From NCBI GenBank assembly GCA_963768765.1, contig CAVYJK010000028.1, forward strand, positions 48,576-112,575: 64,000 bases of DNA, given 5' to 3'. Position numbers and translations under genes: made by a program. Below the pieces are notes generated by a model. That model searched no databases. It was not told the DNA's origin and was given only the letters and a program-made list of their open reading frames with translations. Each line of letters begins with the position of its first letter. Position 1 is the stretch's first letter. This document shows positions 2,979-59,652 of the stretch, one piece after another. Source of the stretch: an uncultured delta proteobacterium. Its GTDB lineage: Bacteria; Desulfobacterota; Desulfobaccia; Desulfobaccales; 0-14-0-80-60-11.

Positions 2979-3054
2979 TAATCCCCCCCTGCCCCCCTTT
3001 ATGAAAGGGGGGTGAAAGTCCCCCTTTTTTAAAGGGGGATTTAGGGGGATTTTC
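2979..3054. repeat. Family A MITE-like palindromic element (AATCCCCC...GGGGGATT termini, internal CCCCCTTT/AAAGGGGG hairpins)
   Basis: Sequence is aataatccccccctgccccccttt atg aaaggggggtgaaagtccccctttttt aaagggggatttagggggatttt. The same architecture recurs at 30778-30890 and 42555-42642. Confidence 0.8.
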
Positions 3055-3940: not shown

Positions 3941-5518
3941 TTAAATTAAATATTGCTGCGTTACCTCCTTAAGAAACATAACGCCTTTTTGACTGCTAAA
4001 CTGACGATCCAGGGTGCGGTACTGGATAGCTTCGGCCACGTGGGCGAGAGCAAGATCAATTTCACCTTCCAGGTCGGCGATGGTGCGGGCGATCTTCAGG
4101 ATACGGGTGTAGGCCCGGGCGGAGAGGCCCAGGCGTTCCACGGCAGCCTCCAACAGACGCCGGGGTTCCGACCCCAGGGCACAATATTCTTTGATCATGC
4201 GGGGGGTCATATGGTTGTTGGCAAAGATCCGAGTTCTGGCAAAACGTTTTCCTTGCCTACCCCTGGCTGCCAGAACTTGCGCTCTCATTTCTTTAGAACC
4301 CTCACCACCCGAATCGTCCGCCAGGTCTTGGAAGGGTACTGCAAATACTTGTATCTGAATATCTATGCGGTCCAGCAAGGGGCCCGAAATTCTCGAGCGG
4401 TAATGCTTGATCTGCTGAGGGGTGCAGGAACACACCCGACGCGGGTCTCCATATAGGCCGCAAAAACAGGGATTCATGGCAGCCACCAGCATAAATCGGG
4501 CCGGGTAGGTAGTGGTGGCGGCGGCCCGAGAGATGGTCACCACCCCATCTTCCAAAGGCTGCCGCAGCACCTCCAGGGTGGAGCGCTTGAACTCCGGCAA
4601 TTCATCCAAGAAAAGAACGCCGTGGTGGGCCAGGCTAACCTCACCCGGCCTGGGAATATTTCCACCCCCGACGAGACCGGCATCGGATATGGTGTGATGG
4701 GGAGAACGGAAGGGCCGCTGATTGAGCAGCCCTTGACCTGGCTTAAGAAGACCCATCACACTATAAATCTTGGAGGCTTCCAGAGCCTCTTCAAAATTCA
4801 AGGGTGGGAGAATGCTGGGAAGGCGCTGGGCCAGCATGGTCTTCCCCGAACCCGGCGGACCAATCATCAGGACATTGTGACCGCCAGCCGCGGCCAGAAG
4901 CAAGGCTCGTTTTACCGGCTCCTGGCCTTTGACTTCCCCGAAATCCAGCTCGTACTCTGATTCCAGGTTTACCGCCTCCACCGGTACCGGCGGCAATGGG
5001 GCCAGGTGCTCCCGCCCTGCCAGGAACTCCACCAATTGTGCCAGACTATCGACGGGATAAATCTCGATATCCTGAACCACCCCAGCCTCTTGGGCATTCT
5101 GGCGGGGAATCACCAGGGCCAGACCTGCCTGGCGAGTGGCCAGGGCCATGGACAGCACCCCCCGGGTGGGTTTCAGCCGGCCATCCAGGGACAACTCCCC
5201 GAATATCAAAAACTTTTCCAAGGGGTCCTGGGGCACGATGCCCTGGGCGGTGAGGATGCCGACGGCCACCGGCAAGTCAAAACCGGTACCCTCTTTACGC
5301 ACATCCGCCGGGGCGAGATTGATGGTGATACGATTGCTGGGGTATTGATAACCGGAATTCTTTAACGCGGCTCGTACCCGATCCTTGCTCTCTTTGACGG
5401 CAGCCTCGGGCAACCCTACGGTGGTAAAGGCCGGGAGACCGGGGGCCAGATCAACCTCCACCTCCACCAAGAAGGCGTCCACCCCACGAAGGGCGCCGCT
5501 TTTCACCCGAGCAAGCAT
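3941..5518 (-). CDS. comM: YifB/ComM family Mg-chelatase-like ATPase
   Basis: 525 aa. It has an N-terminal Lon-protease-like domain, Walker A GPPGSGKTMLAQRL, LFLDELPEF and a C-terminal AEAIQYRTLDR. This is the typical ComM/YifB architecture. Confidence 0.9.
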   Translation of the reverse strand: MLARVKSGALRGVDAFLVEVEVDLAPGLPAFTTVGLPEAAVKESKDRVRAALKNSGYQYPSNRITINLAPADVRKEGTGFDLPVAVGILTAQGIVPQDPLEKFLIFGELSLDGRLKPTRGVLSMALATRQAGLALVIPRQNAQEAGVVQDIEIYPVDSLAQLVEFLAGREHLAPLPPVPVEAVNLESEYELDFGEVKGQEPVKRALLLAAAGGHNVLMIGPPGSGKTMLAQRLPSILPPLNFEEALEASKIYSVMGLLKPGQGLLNQRPFRSPHHTISDAGLVGGGNIPRPGEVSLAHHGVLFLDELPEFKRSTLEVLRQPLEDGVVTISRAAATTTYPARFMLVAAMNPCFCGLYGDPRRVCSCTPQQIKHYRSRISGPLLDRIDIQIQVFAVPFQDLADDSGGEGSKEMRAQVLAARGRQGKRFARTRIFANNHMTPRMIKEYCALGSEPRRLLEAAVERLGLSARAYTRILKIARTIADLEGEIDLALAHVAEAIQYRTLDRQFSSQKGVMFLKEVTQQYLI

Positions 5519-5695
5519 GATGGTTCTTCTTAAACAGGGGCAAGTCTTTCCCAGGCTCGCCCAGATTCCTCGAAACTGTCTCTACAAAGTTGCCGGGATT
5601 ATTTCACCAGAGGTAACACGGTCCCTTCGATTACCGCCCAGACCAACAGTAATATCAACAAGACCAAGATCAGGCTCTCTTTGTTAAATTTCGAT

Positions 5696-18339: not shown

Positions 18340-19215
18340 TTAGGGCAGCAACCGGTAGATGGCCGTGGCCTCTTTGCGGCCCCGCAACACCACCGCCTTC
18401 TCGGGAACCAGGTTGAACTTCTTGTCCAGTTCCCTATAGGTGGCCTCGCTGATGAGGGTGTCGGCCTCCAGCTCCTTGGCCAGCTCCTGGAGGCGGGCCG
18501 CCACGTTCACCACGTCGCCCACCACGGTGAAGTCCATGCGCCTGTCGGAGCCGATGTTGCCCACGATGGCCTCGCCGGTATTGATGCCGATGCGTGCTCC
18601 CTGGATGGGGGTGCGGCCTTGGGCCTGCATCTGGGCCAGGTGGCGCTGCATGGCCAGGGCGCACTCCACTGCCCGGGTGGCGGCATGGGGCAGGGGCACC
18701 GGCACCCCGAAGACCGCCATCAGGGCGTCGCCCACGAACTTGTCCAGGGTGCCCCGGTAACGGAAGACCAGTTCCACCATCTCGGTGAAGTAGTCGTTCA
18801 GCACTTCCACCACCGCCTCCGGGGCCATGGTCTCGGACATGGCGGTAAAGTTGCGGATGTCGGCGAAGAGCACCGTCACCGGTTGGCGCCGCCCGCCCAG
18901 CTGCAGCAAATCCGGATTTTTCAGGATCTCTTCGGCCACCTCCGGGCTCACGTACCGGGAGACCGTGTCCCGCAGCATGTGCTTTTCCTCATAGAGGCGC
19001 AGGCGGCTCCGCAGGGTGGCTTCGTGGTGGGCCTCCTCCTGGGCGATTTCCTTGAGCAGCCTTTTGAGCTCCAGGTCTTCCGCCTCCTGGGCCAGGGCCA
19101 GGTAACTCCTGCGGGCCTCCAGCTCGTGGGAGATGGCCAGCTCGATGGCCTTGAGGATGCTCAGTTCCGCCTTGACCTCAGGATCGGCTTGCGGTCCTGG
19201 TTTTTTCTTTTTCAT
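18340..19215 (-). CDS. Class III adenylate/guanylate cyclase with N-terminal ferritin/rubrerythrin-like helical domain
   Basis: The C-terminal half has VTVLFADIRNFTAMSE, GDALMAVFG, RIGINTGEAIVGNIGS and FTVVGDVVNVAARLQ, marking a CYCc catalytic domain. The N-terminal ~100 aa form two long helices with acidic/His motifs (AISHELEAR and IAQEEAHHEATL). Confidence 0.8.
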   Translation of the reverse strand: MKKKKPGPQADPEVKAELSILKAIELAISHELEARRSYLALAQEAEDLELKRLLKEIAQEEAHHEATLRSRLRLYEEKHMLRDTVSRYVSPEVAEEILKNPDLLQLGGRRQPVTVLFADIRNFTAMSETMAPEAVVEVLNDYFTEMVELVFRYRGTLDKFVGDALMAVFGVPVPLPHAATRAVECALAMQRHLAQMQAQGRTPIQGARIGINTGEAIVGNIGSDRRMDFTVVGDVVNVAARLQELAKELEADTLISEATYRELDKKFNLVPEKAVVLRGRKEATAIYRLLP

Positions 19216-22446: not shown

Positions 22447-22469
22447 GGGGCGGTTCGCGGACCGCCCCC
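22447..22469. repeat. REP-type hairpin (GGGGCGG-ttcgcgg-ACCGCCCC) downstream of rpsI
   Basis: The sequence ggggcggttcgcggaccgccccc has the same GGGGCG/CGCCCC outer stem as the REP family listed in the findings. Confidence 0.7.
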
Positions 22470-25021: not shown

Positions 25022-25252
25022 CTGTCAGCTGTCAGCGGTCAGCTTAAAGCACGTAGGGGCGGTTCGTGAACCGCCCCTCATAGTTTTAAGGATTCATGGC
25101 GCCCCGAACCCCGCCAAAAAATAGGGGCGTGATAAATCACGCCCCTACATTTTATTGCTACTCTCGCTTCTCTTCCTTCAAGAAGCCGAAAATCCAAATT
25201 TCCGAGACTAACCGATTAATAACCTTAAACTGCTCACTGCTCACTGCTCACT
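25021..25252. repeat. Repeat cluster: heptamer tandems plus two REP hairpins
   Basis: Heptamer tandems are (CTGTCAG)x3-like at 25021-25043 and (CTGCTCA)x3 at 25230-25252. REP hairpins are TAGGGGCGGTTCGTGAACCGCCCCT at 25054-25079 and TAGGGGCGTGATAAATCACGCCCCTAC at 25121-25150. Confidence 0.8.
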
Positions 25253-28830: not shown

Positions 28831-29295
28831 TTGGGGAAAGGGGCCAGGGACAAAAGCCCCTGCCCCCTTCCCCAAACCCCATCCCCCAACCCTATAAGTA
28901 GGGGCGACCCGTTGGGTCGCCCCAGAAAAATGTAGGGCGGGCACTGCCCGCCAGCAATAACCTCAAGAACAGGTGGGCCATGCCCACCCCACATGGTGGC
29001 ACAGGCTTTCCATCCTGTGCTTTTTTTTACACAGGCGAGACGCCTGTGCCACTGAGGCCGGTGCCACTGACGGCGGTGCCACTGGCCCCTGCCCTCCCCT
29101 ACATCCCATCCCCCAACCCCATAGAAAACTGTAGGGGCGGGTTTGAAACCCGCCCCTACAGTTTTTCCGCCCCTCCTTTTCACCTTTGCAAAACCCCCCT
29201 TTTTGCCGTATAGTGCCCTTTGATAAGGGAAACTGTAAGGGCGCGCCCAGGTGAGCGCCCTCAAGGGGCGGACACGCGGGTCCGCCCCTACAAAA
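28831..29295. repeat. Repeat cluster filling the nrdJ / AI-2E transporter intergenic region
   Basis: A family B G-rich hairpin sits at 28831-28893. REP hairpins are at 28901-28923 (GGGGCGACCCgttGGGTCGCCCC), 28935-28952 and 29129-29161 (CTGTAGGGGCGGGTTTGAAACCCGCCCCTACAG). A double REP is at 29233-29295. Confidence 0.8.
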
Positions 29296-29333
29296 ATTTG
29301 TAAAATTTGTAAAATAGAGAGACCCGCAAAGGC

Positions 29334-30608: not shown

Positions 30609-30777
30609 ACCCGGCAAGTTTGAGGGCAGGGCCGGGGGAATGTGGCACAGGCGCCCTCGCCTGTGATCACCCCATCCTGGGCACGGCACGCCGTGCCCCT
30701 ACAGCTCCCATCCCAGCCCCCTTTATGAGAGCTCTGCAAAATTCTTCGATGACAGGTTCAGGATGGCAAAACCTTTT

Positions 30778-31097
30778 TAAATCCCCCTAAATCCCCCTTT
30801 TTCAAAGGGGGACTTTATATAGCCAAGTTATTGACAACGCACGTCTTTAGAAATTCCCCCCTTTAATAAAGGGGGGTTAGGGGGGATTTCTCTGTAGCCA
30901 TCTGAGGCATAATTCCCTTACCAAAGTCACTTTCTCAGAGGTCCCCTTTATGGGGTTTGGGGGTGGGATTCAGGGAGGACTGTAAGTGGGCCGTCGGCCC
31001 CTAGCCCCCTCCCTGAAAAAGTATTTTTCCCGAGGCTTTTTCAGGGAACAGCGCCACCCCTAAAAAAACAGGGGCGGGTTACAAACCCGCCCCTACG
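30778..31097. repeat. Repeat cluster: family A MITE-like element, family B2 G-rich element and REP hairpin
   Basis: The family A element (30778-30890) has the termini aatccccctaaatccccc and ggggggttaggggggatt. The B2 element (30951-31020) reads tggggtttgggggtgggattcagggaggactgtaagtgggccgtcggcccctagccccctccctgaaaaa. The REP hairpin is at 31068-31097. Confidence 0.8.
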
Positions 31098-36944: not shown

Positions 36945-37022
36945 ACGACAAAAGATCTTTTAATCCCTATCCTTCTGGGAATAGTATCTTCTTTGCAGTT
37001 TCACTTGCTATAACCCTACAGA

Positions 37023-37390
37023 TCAAAACGCGTCCTGGATAATCTCCACCTGGGGGCCGCCGTCGGCCAGGGTGATCGCCCACCACGTCGAAGCGCACCG
37101 GCGCAGAGTGCAGGCGTTTTTGCTTGAGGTAATAATCGGCCAACTTCCGGAGGCGGGCCTGTTTGGCGGCGGAAATCGCCTCCCGGGGGCCGCCGAACCG
37201 GTGGCTGGTCCTGGTTTTGACCTCCACGAAGACCACAAATTCGCGGTGCCGGGCGATGAGGTCGATTTCCCCCAGGGGGGTGACGTAGTTGCGCTCCAGG
37301 ATTTTATAGCCCTGCTTCTTCAAGGCCGCGGCGGCCAGGTCTTCGCCGGCGTCGCCTAACCCTCTAAGGGTTGAGGGCGCACACACGGGT
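37023..37390 (-). CDS. yraN: YraN-family (UPF0102) endonuclease; start obscured by upstream read-through, frame disruption near 37084
   Basis: The sequence GEDLAAAALKKQGYKILERNYVTPLGEIDLIARHREFVVFVEVKTR..VRFDVV continues in another frame as AITLADGGPQVEIIQDAF, ending at a stop at 37023. E. coli YraN likewise ends EWIKDAF. Confidence 0.75.
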
Positions 37391-37399
37391 GCGCCCCTA

Positions 37400-37998
37400 C
37401 GGGTTGACAATGCTGGTCTGGCTTTAAACGCAGCCAGCCAGTCATCAAATTCGTCTTTTCCTTTAGCCCGGGGATTTTCCCGGTCCAGCTCCCAGCGCTG
37501 GGGATTAGCCGCGATATATTCCCGAATGCGGTTCAAAGACTCGTCATTTCTAATCACATGTTCGTAAAAACTGCGCTGCCAGAGATTCCCCTTAAGCGGC
37601 TTCCAACTATGATTTTTCACCTCATGGATGTATTCATTCGTGGTCATGGTTTTAAACCATTGCACTATTTCCTGGAGTGGCGCATCTGCTTTTTGTAGGG
37701 GCGCACCCAGGTGTGCGCCCTTTGGCCCCTCGGTTAATTTTAAAACGATTCCATGAAAATGATTGGGCATGACAACATGAGAGGAGTCTATCTTGGTTGA
37801 GGGGAATTTACTCTCCAACTTTCGCCACCATTTCTCCACCATTTTGCCGGCATCATTTAATTGCAGAATCCCCTCAGCAACCTTCCCCAATAAACATTCT
37901 CGTTTCTGAATGCAAACTGTGACAAAATAGGCACCTTCCAGAGAATAGTCGTAGCCTGGCAAACGGGGAGACTTACGCTTCCATGGAAAAAGAAACAT
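37400..37998 (-). mobile_element. REP-associated tyrosine transposase (RAYT, IS200-like Y1 HUH transposase) gene; no stop codon before yraN
   Basis: The N-terminal ~195 aa of ORF 36967..37998 carry PRLPGYDYSLEGAYFVTVC, the HUH motif MPNHFHGIV and the Tyr motif QRSFYEHVIRNDESLNRIREYIAANP. REP hairpins lie inside it (37691-37723), at its 3' end (37373-37403) and just upstream (38048-38107). Its GC is lower than the flanks. Confidence 0.8.
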
Positions 37999-38047
37999 AG
38001 CTGTCAGCCTTTATAATAGCAGTTTCCAGCCAAAAGGCTTCTGTACC

Positions 38048-38107
38048 GGCGCCCATACCTGTGCACCCCACTGGGGCGGACACATGGGTCCGCCCCTACA
38101 AAAAAAT
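38048..38107. repeat. Double REP unit upstream of the RAYT gene
   Basis: The sequence is ggcgcccatacctgtgcacccc actGGGGCGGACACATGGGTCCGCCCCTACAaaaaaa. Confidence 0.8.
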
Positions 38108-38148: not shown

Positions 38149-38703
38149 TCATTTTGGTTCCCCCAGCCACTCCTTCACCCCTTTGAAGGTGCGGCGGTGG
38201 AGGTCGCAGGGACCCCAGCAGCGCAACGCCTCCAGGTGCTCGGCGGTGGCGTACCCCTTGTGGCGGGCGAAATTGTACTGGGGATAGCGGCGGTGGCAGG
38301 CCTCCATCAGAGAGTCCCGATACACCTTGGCCAGGACGGAGGCCGCGGAAATAGAAGGACAGAGGTCGTCGCCCTTGACTACGGGTTGCTGGGGGTAGGC
38401 CAGGGGCAGGGGCTGGTGGCCGTCCACCAGGATCATCTCCGGAATTACCGGCAGGGCCCGGATGGCCAGGGCCATGGCCTTGAGGCAGGCGCCCAGGATC
38501 CCCAGGCGCTCGATCTGGCGGGGACCCAGCCCCCGAATGGCAAAGGCCAGGGCCTGGGACCGGATCTGCTCATCCAGGGAAGCGCGGGCCTCGGGGGTGA
38601 GGCGCTTGGAGTCCCGGAGCCCGGGAAATTGGGCGCCTACCGGGAGGATCACCGCCGCGGCCACCACCGGGCCGGCCAGGGGGCCACGGCCCACCTCGTC
38701 CAC
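38149..38703 (-). CDS. rnhB: Ribonuclease HII (true start probably upstream, near 38780)
   Basis: It has DEVGRGPLAGPVVAAAVIL, DSKRLTPE and SIAAASVLAKV. Conserved-looking residues ([19 protein letters not shown]) continue upstream of the track GTG start in the same frame, but with no obvious start codon. Confidence 0.85.
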   Translation of the reverse strand: MDEVGRGPLAGPVVAAAVILPVGAQFPGLRDSKRLTPEARASLDEQIRSQALAFAIRGLGPRQIERLGILGACLKAMALAIRALPVIPEMILVDGHQPLPLAYPQQPVVKGDDLCPSISAASVLAKVYRDSLMEACHRRYPQYNFARHKGYATAEHLEALRCWGPCDLHRRTFKGVKEWLGEPK

Positions 38704-42524: not shown

Positions 42525-42871
42525 CCGTTTTGGGTTTTTCGTTTTTGGTTTTTCTCCCCCCTTTTCTAAAGGGGGGTCGGGGGGGATTAAAATAAGCTAT
42601 CGATAATCCCCCTAAATCCCCCTTTAAAAAAGGGGGACTTTTCTTTTCTCGTTCCCAGGCTCCTGCCGGGGAACGGACACTTCCGGCGAACCTCCGGTTC
42701 GTCGTCCCAGATTAATAATATCGCGGATATCGCCATTCTTGCCAAGCGGAGCCTGGCTTCCAATCCCCGTTCCCCAGCAGGAGCCTGGGGACGATGTTAA
42801 AACCTACTATTGTAGGGGCGCACCTGCGTGTGCGCCCTCATCAGGGCGGACACATGGGTCCGCCCCTACGG
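42525..42871. repeat. Intergenic region composed almost entirely of stacked repeats from five families
   Basis: In order: a GTTTTTG/GTTTTCG tandem (42525-42554), a family A element (42555-42642), family E hairpins (42648-42676 and 42765-42796), and a double REP (42809-42871, TGTAGGGGCGCACCTGCGTGTGCGCCCTcatcaGGGCGGACACATGGGTCCGCCCCTAC). Confidence 0.85.
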
Positions 42872-45690: not shown

Positions 45691-45787
45691 CTCTTCACCT
45701 GGCCTCGGCACAGGCGAGACGCCTGTGCTACCATTCATCTCTGGTGGGGATGTCGGGTCCATGGCCCGCCATCCCCAGCCCTTATAC

Positions 45788-59555: not shown

Positions 59556-59596
59556 AGACTCATCCTTCCGTGAGGGGTATCTAAGGGCATTTCCCC

Positions 59597-59652
59597 GCAG
59601 GGGCGCACCTATGCGGGCGCCCACTCCGGGCGGACACGCAGGTCCGCCAATC
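59597..59652. repeat. Double REP unit downstream of emrB
   Basis: The sequence is cgcaGGGGCGCACCTATGCGGGCGCCCactccGGGCGGACACGCAGGTCCGCCaatc. Confidence 0.75.

Follow-up and report, generated by a model that had tools for sequence, protein, structure and literature searches.

A probably domesticated RAYT transposase fused in frame to the YraN nuclease through a REP-encoded linker in Desulfobaccales

The DNA analysed here, called the window below, is a stretch of 64,000 nucleotides from an uncultured delta proteobacterium of the order Desulfobaccales (GenBank assembly GCA_963768765.1, contig CAVYJK010000028.1, positions 48,576 to 112,575). Downstream of the RNase HII gene rnhB, its minus strand carries an open reading frame (ORF) whose N-terminal part is a REP-associated tyrosine transposase (RAYT, or TnpAREP; REP, repetitive extragenic palindrome) and whose C-terminal part is the nuclease YraN, with no stop codon between them. 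A preliminary description, made from the sequence alone, had placed a REP/RAYT system between rnhB and yraN and had read it into yraN without a stop; the ORF of 343 aa at 36967..37998 and its matches to profile models bear this out. The RAYT domain covers aa 1-199 (37402..37998, minus strand) and was delimited with the models NF047646 and PF01797 and by alignment to 4er8, the structure of Escherichia coli TnpAREP. The YraN domain (UPF0102, PD-(D/E)xK type) lies at 37023..37368 on the same strand and was delimited with PF02021, NF009154 and PDB entry 3fov. The upstream gene rnhB (38149..38703, minus strand; PF01351, 3.5e-36) is separated from the fusion by a 150-nt spacer and belongs to the ffh-rpsP-KH-rimM-trmD-rplS-rnhB operon.

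Residues 214-307 match both YraN models, PF02021 at 9.3e-30 and NF009154 with 116.4 bits (cutoff 109), and 3fov aligns with this half at 3e-14. On the RAYT side, PF01797 (Y1_Tnp) passes its cutoff of 23 with 24.4 bits but spans only the C-terminal half of the domain, and the similarity to 4er8 is weak (E = 0.003). The HUH motif is H80-F-H82 (37753-37761, minus strand). The sequence SFYEHVIRN had been proposed as the Y1 motif; the alignment to 4er8 instead designates Y161, within REYIAANP (37516-37518, minus strand), as the catalytic tyrosine, in register with Y115 of the E. coli enzyme. The PD-(D/E)xK residues of the YraN half are D246 (37261-37263), E259 (37222-37224) and K261 (37216-37218), all on the minus strand. 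In an alignment of 25 fused homologues, H80, H82, Y161 and N165 are invariant, and so are D246, E259 and K261. PADLOC gave no defence-system match for the fusion, and no Rfam family was matched in the 64-kb window.

The 3' end of the window copy is disrupted by a frameshift that had been overlooked in the preliminary description. One extra base near 37077 (GTGGGC[G]ATCACC on the minus strand) puts the final 37 codons of the ORF (36967-37079) out of frame, so that the 343-aa product has an out-of-frame tail and YraN loses its last 19 residues. The complete C-terminal strand of YraN (...VVxIxxxxxxPQxEIIxxAF), intact in the homologues, is out of frame in the window; the conserved C-terminus ...ITLADGGPQVEIIQDAF* is legible in another frame and ends at 37023, and the two pieces of yraN returned by tblastn abut at 37078/37079. 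Once corrected, the fusion product has 324 aa and ends in ...VVGITLADGGPQVEIIQDAF. Either the assembly is in error at this point or YraN has begun to decay (pseudogenisation).

A de novo search for perfect hairpins across the window recovered stems of 8-10 bp at the three places where hairpins had been described, namely upstream of the gene (38073-38096), inside the ORF (37699-37720) and at the RAYT/yraN junction (37375-37396), as well as about ten others of this family in gaps between genes. The upstream hairpin belongs to a REP doublet in the rnhB-RAYT spacer (38043..38099, minus strand), made of an intact REP, GTAGGGGCGGACccatgtGTCCGCCCC (38073-38099, GTAG on the coding strand), and a degenerate inverted partner (38043-38067). 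An equivalent REP is found in the related loci L001, L004, L005, L012 and L013; it is absent from L003 and L008, in which rnhB abuts the fusion ORF. The second REP (37695..37721) lies in frame within the RAYT sequence and antisense to the gene, with GTAG on the plus strand; its translation, KGAHLGAPLQ, follows immediately on the HUH strand. The third, GTAGGGGCGCACccgtgtGTGCGCCC (37374..37400, minus strand), encodes the linker between RAYT and YraN, RRGAPVCAPS, and contains an in-frame GTG. Most fused loci have the same arrangement, with a perfect antisense hairpin at about +270..+320 of the gene (...GCCC-CTAC) and a second one in the sense orientation at about +575..+623 (GTAG-GGGC...), the latter being present as a DNA hairpin in L001, L003, L004, L005, L008, L009, L010 and L014.

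The preliminary description had pointed to covariation in the inner stem of these repeats, and an alignment of 25 homologous in-ORF hairpins agrees, with four of the eight stem pairs altered on both sides. The 100% pairing of these stems is uninformative in itself because the hairpins had been pre-selected as perfect; the covariation alone is informative. At the junction, the linker of the fused homologues follows the consensus RRG[A/G]PxC[A/P]PS, in which A..A and G..P occur as coupled pairs, and the stems of the corresponding hairpins exist in two versions, GGGCGCAC/GTGCGCCC or GGGCGGAC/GTCCGCCC. No obvious protein-level reason was seen for this coupling, which is explained by the need of the stem for concerted C:G to G:C changes. 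In L012 and L013 the linker hairpin has decayed or is no longer perfect; the linker of L012 now reads SSDRAASEQAP, and the fusion is still kept there. As a separate observation, the window and its closest homologue (P0001) have an extra 7-residue segment after the internal REP (37665-37697, aa 100-111, APLQKADAPLQE), which looks as if part of the REP 3' end had been duplicated (APLQ...APLQ).

The fused architecture is widespread among the closest relatives of the gene. With the RAYT part alone as query, 4288 relatives were obtained and the best 120 were analysed (57-78% identity, 308-349 aa, mostly 316-333 aa); 114 of these 120 also carry PF02021, hence the same RAYT::YraN architecture, and six are unfused. 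More than 100 protein clusters, drawn from JGI, ENA, NCBI and Logan assemblies, share this in-frame junction, a single uninterrupted frame runs through both domains in the homologue alignments, and the sources, where named, are metagenome-assembled genomes labelled Desulfobaccales, Syntrophobacterales or Deltaproteobacteria. The genomic context is shared as well. The order ffh-rpsP-KH-rimM-trmD-rplS-rnhB-[RAYT::yraN]-rsmI-ptsH-ptsI-smpB was found in L003, L004 and L008-L014, and contig-limited parts of it in L001, L002 and L005, which makes 12 related Desulfobaccales loci in all; the upstream neighbour rnhB is seen in L003, L004, L005 and L008-L014.

Purifying selection acts on both halves, with ratios of nonsynonymous to synonymous substitution rates (dN/dS) of 0.09-0.20 for RAYT and 0.19-0.28 for YraN. 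The earlier wording, an inserted gene reading through into yraN, suggests a recent or accidental event, a view contradicted by an in-frame fusion found in more than 100 clusters and at 12 syntenic loci under such selection. Loci also rank by RAYT identity to the window as they do by RsmI identity, which is what mainly vertical descent would lead one to expect; the closest locus among GTDB representatives shows about 71% identity to the window, and public assemblies gave no exact match to the 343-aa ORF. Only one copy of the RAYT is present in the window, and a 2.63-Mb contig (CAWJCT010000001.1) has a single locus among the 80 loci kept. No tnpB gene was found at the window locus. The IS200 model NF033573 scores 23 for a cutoff of 55, and the tyrosine motif is Y-x3-N rather than Y-x3-Q.

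The base composition of the two halves differs. The RAYT half of the window has a GC content of 0.47, compared with 0.63 in the surrounding 22 kb. Over the window, L001, L003, L008, L009, L010, L013 and L014, the RAYT half ranges from 0.47 to 0.51 with a GC content at third codon positions (GC3) of 0.50-0.56, in surroundings of 0.59-0.63, and where the genes are fused, GC3 in the YraN half of that ORF is 0.69-0.81. In 46 other loci, stand-alone homologues likewise have a lower GC content than the DNA around them, the difference being about -0.05 on average and up to -0.16.

The history of the locus can be approached through relatives in which the arrangement differs. Four loci (L049, L069, L085 and L054) have no RAYT and a yraN gene with its own ATG, the N-termini of their YraN proteins being MKTASRQLGD, MISWFKRRELGD, MKDPRRQLGD and MKDVRRQLGD. 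In three of them (L049, L069 and L085) the gap between rnhB and yraN is 170-190 nt; the L054 contig stops 530 nt upstream of yraN, short of rnhB. In the fused forms (...C[A/P]PS-D-x-RRQLGD), the end of the REP coincides with the site of the MK codons (ATGAAA) of the RAYT-less relatives. When these loci were searched for REP footprints, no canonical REP was found between rnhB and yraN in L049, L069 and L085 or upstream of the L054 yraN. The sequence ATAGGGG...GGCGGAC before the L054 ATG was considered as a footprint and rejected, its resemblance to a REP being too weak to be convincing.

A further sub-lineage (L004, L005 and L013; proteins P0038 and P0068) has RAYT and yraN as separate genes. 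There, a TAA immediately behind the hairpin closes the RAYT, and a GTG located in the 3' arm of the REP, 9 nt after AGGGG, serves as the new start of yraN. L001 and L054 offer another comparison: they are 97.6% identical over the 6 kb downstream and only 90% identical in the yraN segment; at this locus (L001, 1162-2453; L054, 541-1021), L001 has RAYT::yraN with an adjacent trypsin-like gene (PF13365) and L054 a stand-alone yraN. This contrast suggests an allelic replacement by recombination, in which a divergent yraN allele was imported. When 1.8 billion proteins are clustered at 50%, a single full-length fused representative remains, the other two-domain matches listed being fragments of it, and none of about 65 loci from other phyla has yraN within 10 kb of a stand-alone RAYT. 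Taken together, these comparisons indicate that the fusion is probably a single event of one narrow clade. It appears to be old, mostly inherited vertically and also dispensable, given the split lineage and the near-identical loci with and without it.

The REPs at the gene are not isolated. Their enrichment had been claimed in the preliminary description, and the counts in the window support it: GGGGCG-N8-22-CGCCCC occurs nine times where 1.2 are expected (none of 100 shuffles reaches nine), and GTAGGGGC 16 times where 3.1 are expected (again in none of 100 shuffles). Besides those at the gene, the 64-kb window holds about 13 further REP copies, and GTAG-GGG...CCC is common to all. Among the dispersed copies previously listed, perfect hairpins were recovered at 22447, 25055, 25122, 28901, 29125, 29264, 31070, 42816 and 42844; those given at 28935, 29233 and 59597 are degenerate or partners in doublets. 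Individually, they comprise a hairpin GGGGCGGTtcgcggACCGCCCC at 22447..22468; a pair of inverted GTAG REPs in an intergenic gap (25053-25077, plus strand, and 25124-25148, minus strand); an intergenic cluster at 28898..29291 with a REP at 28898-28923, a "double-foot" palindrome, GTAGGGGCGGGTTtgaAACCCGCCCCTAC, at 29125-29165, a doublet at 29236-29291 and other types of hairpin; two minus-strand REPs at 30678-30702 and 31071-31096; a REPIN-like doublet (REPIN, a pair of inverted REPs) upstream of ffh, GTAGGGGCGCAC.. then ..GTCCGCCCCTAC, at 42812..42869; and a degenerate doublet at 59596..59649. The inverted doublets at 29236-29291, 42812-42869 and 59596-59649, together with the one upstream of the gene, have the layout of REPINs or bacterial interspersed mosaic elements (BIMEs). 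Similar doublets were seen in relatives, directly upstream of ffh in L014 (5612-5659) and at 8759-8810 in L001. The canonical REP GTAGGGGCG was not found in the four RAYT-less loci, sampled over 7-20 kb, an absence that lends weak support to a tie between this RAYT and these REPs.

Other hairpin families share the window with these REPs. The first is unrelated, CCCCCTTTnnnAAAGGGGG, with six copies in the window where 0.01 are expected (at 2992-3039, 30792-30876 and 42556-42637); the copies mostly form inverted pairs flanked by CCCTAA/TTAGGG, and the family is also seen in L001, L008, L010, L013, L049 and L054, thus including RAYT-less relatives. Another intergenic family, GCACAGGCG-aga-CGCCTGTGC, lies at 29030-29048, 30646-30665 and 45708-45728 and also in L003, L004, L008, L010, L013 and L014, with degenerate copies in L054 and L085. 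A GTAG/GTGG-tagged hairpin of yet another type, GT[AG]GGGTGGGCACnGCCCACC, occurs at 28932-28953 and 28971-28992 and in L049 (10345), L054 (4761) and L085 (9168); its presence in these RAYT-less relatives makes it likely that a different enzyme acts on it or that it is a leftover. The relatives L003, L004, L008, L013 and L014 have in abundance a hairpin pair, CGTTCCCAAGCnnnnGCTTGGGAACG then GGCAAACCtccGGTTTGCC (for example at 5517-5542, 18720-18773 and 19358-19383 in L003), for which no match was found in the window with up to two mismatches allowed. The interval 28880-29300 of the window, about 400 nt of intergenic DNA with at least six hairpins from three families, may be a hotspot of repeat insertion.

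The REP inside the RAYT ORF had been singled out as an unusual feature. It is in fact a known trait of the family, since Quentin et al. (2018; PMC6006769) described in-frame REPs between HUH and Y as a hallmark of TnpAY1 subclass 2.4 and all the traits are present in the window. The REPs of this subclass are long hairpins whose foot consists of three G-C pairs, or "double-foot" forms GT[AG]G...C[TC]AC (PMC6006769), and the subclass corresponds to RAYT group 4 of Bertels et al. 2017 (PMC5581495). The enzyme of the window shares with this group the Y1/HUH fold with a variable insertion of in-frame REP copies between the HUH strand (beta3) and alphaC, long REPs with a GGG/CCC foot and 5' GTAG, "double-foot" GTAG...CTAC palindromes, and a distribution scattered over many phyla, usually once per locus. 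It differs in that the fused Desulfobaccales loci examined keep one internal REP, antisense, instead of a doublet, and in that its C-terminus is joined to a complete YraN nuclease via a translated REP.

The wider family conforms to this picture. The position and frame of the in-ORF REP are common to all fused loci and to stand-alone homologues of many phyla, with compensatory changes in the stem. The stand-alone homologues have a GTAG-hairpin about 240 nt into the gene, straight after MPNHFHGI, usually followed 30-100 nt later by an inverted hairpin-CTAC; their hosts are Nitrospirota, Chloroflexota, Bacteroidota, Planctomycetota, Geobacter, Legionella, cyanobacteria, Saccharibacteria and others, and homologues at 40-42% identity include cyanobacterial genes (L067, L068 and L073). 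The stems of the internal hairpins match the species-specific REPs that flank each stand-alone homologue. A perfect 8-bp hairpin with CTAC is found at the in-ORF site in 49 of the 87 fetched loci, in addition to the window.

Three other systems invite comparison. E. coli TnpAREP is a monomeric HUH enzyme that binds a REP hairpin with its 5' GTAG on single-stranded DNA (ssDNA), which it cleaves and rejoins (PMC3479197). Together with its REPs it forms a REPtron (Ton-Hoang 2012, PMC3333891; Messing 2012, PMC3479197; 4er8) to which the present gene is similar in its HUH motif, its catalytic tyrosine followed by N at +4, its WQ..F.EH.IR motif, the GTAG-tagged REP hairpins around the gene and, probably, its single-copy, domesticated character; TnpAREP of E. 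coli is a member of a different subclass (2.2), carries an auto-inhibitory tail at the C-terminus where the nuclease is fused here, and has no REP inside its gene. YraN is a PD-(D/E)xK ssDNA endonuclease of little specificity that acts together with the ComM helicase to resolve D-loops of transformation (Hardy et al., bioRxiv 10.1101/2024.02.06.579203); it is described there as a single-domain protein of about 120 aa with no other domain. The 112 C-terminal residues of the fusion are those of a typical YraN, with D, E and K, in the widespread rnhB-yraN-rsmI neighbourhood; what differs is that YraN is attached to the C-terminus of a RAYT and lacks its own start codon. Finally, Di Nocera et al. 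(2013; PMC3733652) reported that GTAG REPs are tolerated in frame within genes, to which they add peptides, and that REP ends can supply stops. In the present case, by contrast, the REP is an inter-domain linker that welds two genes, and in the sister lineage it provides both a stop (TAA after the hairpin) and a restart (GTG in the 3' arm). Literature searches combining RAYT/TnpAREP with YraN/UPF0102 retrieved no relevant paper. The REP inside a RAYT gene is already published, and no prior description of the RAYT::YraN fusion was found; unexpectedly long proteins were dropped by Quentin et al. as gene fusions or annotation errors (PMC6006769).

The explanation favoured here, to which a probability of about 0.7 is assigned, is that of a resident REPtron, in which a domesticated RAYT of subclass 2.4 / group 4 is fused to YraN via a REP linker, the two domains being independent and the fusion tolerated. 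In an ancestor of the Desulfobaccales clade, the element would have come to lie between rnhB and yraN, where its 3' REP would have displaced the yraN start (ATG AAA in the RAYT-less relatives), so that the REP hairpin would now be translated as a 10-residue linker. Translation of the ffh...rnhB operon transcript would yield RAYT and YraN as a single polypeptide of about 320 aa. A scan of the 150-nt rnhB-RAYT spacer for promoters and terminators gave nothing convincing, neither a promoter of its own nor a terminator, and in L003 the rnhB stop overlaps the start of the fusion; the RAYT is presumably expressed from the housekeeping operon. The RAYT domain is predicted to bind GTAG-REP hairpins on ssDNA and to cleave and rejoin them like E. 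coli TnpAREP, so maintaining a dispersed REP/REPIN population, and the YraN domain would remain the ssDNA endonuclease of the cell for recombination D-loops. Both domains would then act independently. The fusion, presumably a tolerated by-product of a REP abutting yraN, would couple RAYT expression to the housekeeping operon and bring no new activity.

Several observations weigh against this explanation. The match of residues 21-169 to NF047646 (REP_Tyr_transpos) scores 60.9 bits, under the curated cutoff of 80, probably because of the REP insert. An AlphaFold2 model based on the 25-sequence alignment has pLDDT (predicted local distance difference test) values of 84-88 in the YraN half and below 50 in the RAYT half, so that the packing of the domains cannot be judged from it. 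The independence of the domains is deduced only from the fusion being a single and dispensable event, and the fact that the frame has stayed open in more than 100 clusters could also mean that selection acts on the fusion itself. The GC3 gap between the halves is not explained by a simple long-term vertical residence. Lastly, neighbour-joining trees of the flanking housekeeping proteins (about 950 columns) place L054, which lacks the RAYT, close to the fused L001 as its sister and L085, also without RAYT, within a group of fused loci, and the fused L012 forms the most divergent branch. This suggests recurrent loss or exchange of alleles; a single ancient insertion would be the simplest history, albeit unproven.

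An alternative, considered unlikely, is that the fusion is a functional chimera with a new activity. In one form, the REP-binding RAYT would target the unspecific YraN to extruded REP hairpins, and REPs would become preferred cuts on displaced strands or D-loops; in another, the YraN-ComM partnership would bring RAYT to recombination or transformation intermediates, where single-stranded REPs would be cut and pasted. The biochemistry of the two families lends itself to such a scheme, since both enzymes act on ssDNA, YraN working with ComM at D-loops and TnpAREP binding GTAG-REP ssDNA specifically. Conservation can be read in the same way, given that 114 of the 120 best homologues retain an open frame together with every catalytic residue of both domains, that dN/dS is below 0.3, and that L012 is still fused despite its decayed linker hairpin. 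On the other hand, the association arose once and in one narrow clade, a sub-lineage has split genes, near-identical genomes differ by the presence of the RAYT part, and the structure prediction, uninformative for the RAYT half, gives no sign of cooperation between the domains. The single origin, the split lineage and this presence/absence polymorphism weaken in particular the idea of a REP-directed chimera. Rather improbable, too, is the fuller proposal of a two-nuclease machine, in which HUH recognition of GTAG-REPs would position YraN or recruit the ComM-YraN D-loop apparatus, making the REPs programmed processing sites for recombination or transformation intermediates.

A doubtful alternative, to which slightly less weight still is given, concerns only the way in which the two domains are produced. 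Expression would be operon-like, YraN being mostly translated alone from a start inside the junction REP, and the long polypeptide would be minor or irrelevant. A separate GTG start for yraN in the junction REP had indeed been suggested, and such a start is used in the split genes of L004, L005 and L013, in the 3' arm of the REP; in the window, an in-frame GTG lies in the loop of the hairpin, 7 nt after AGGGG (of GTAGGGG), and Val or Met occupies this linker position in about half of the fused homologues. The suggestion fails for the other half, which have no start codon there (Ala, Thr or Arg) and no other conserved one ahead of LGDxGE, so that internal GTG initiation is possible in the window and not general. 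Moreover, the putative ribosome-binding site and start would be buried in a stable GC hairpin, and stops or frameshifts after the RAYT part should then be common, yet only six of the 120 homologues are unfused.

An artefact in which a sequencing error hides the junction stop, as the preliminary description had envisaged, or a recently inserted active IS200/IS605 copy could draw on the single indel of the window copy (near 37077) and on the foreign composition of the RAYT half, but both are practically ruled out by the same open junction in more than 100 independent protein clusters, the orthologous position in 12 loci, the RsmI-like divergence, a dN/dS well below 1, the single copy in the window, the lack of tnpB and the low NF033573 score.

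If the domains of this resident REPtron are independent, as favoured here, the RAYT::YraN protein is a neat if modest oddity of genome evolution, at a locus that shows a REP hairpin welding two genes as a translated linker and later parting them via a stop and a restart codon. If instead the two-nuclease reading were true, it would provide the first physiological role for a domesticated RAYT and its REPs. In either case, RAYT::YraN constitutes a natural "Rosetta-stone" case for asking whether REP processing and D-loop processing are linked, for which the split and RAYT-less alleles of very close relatives are natural controls.

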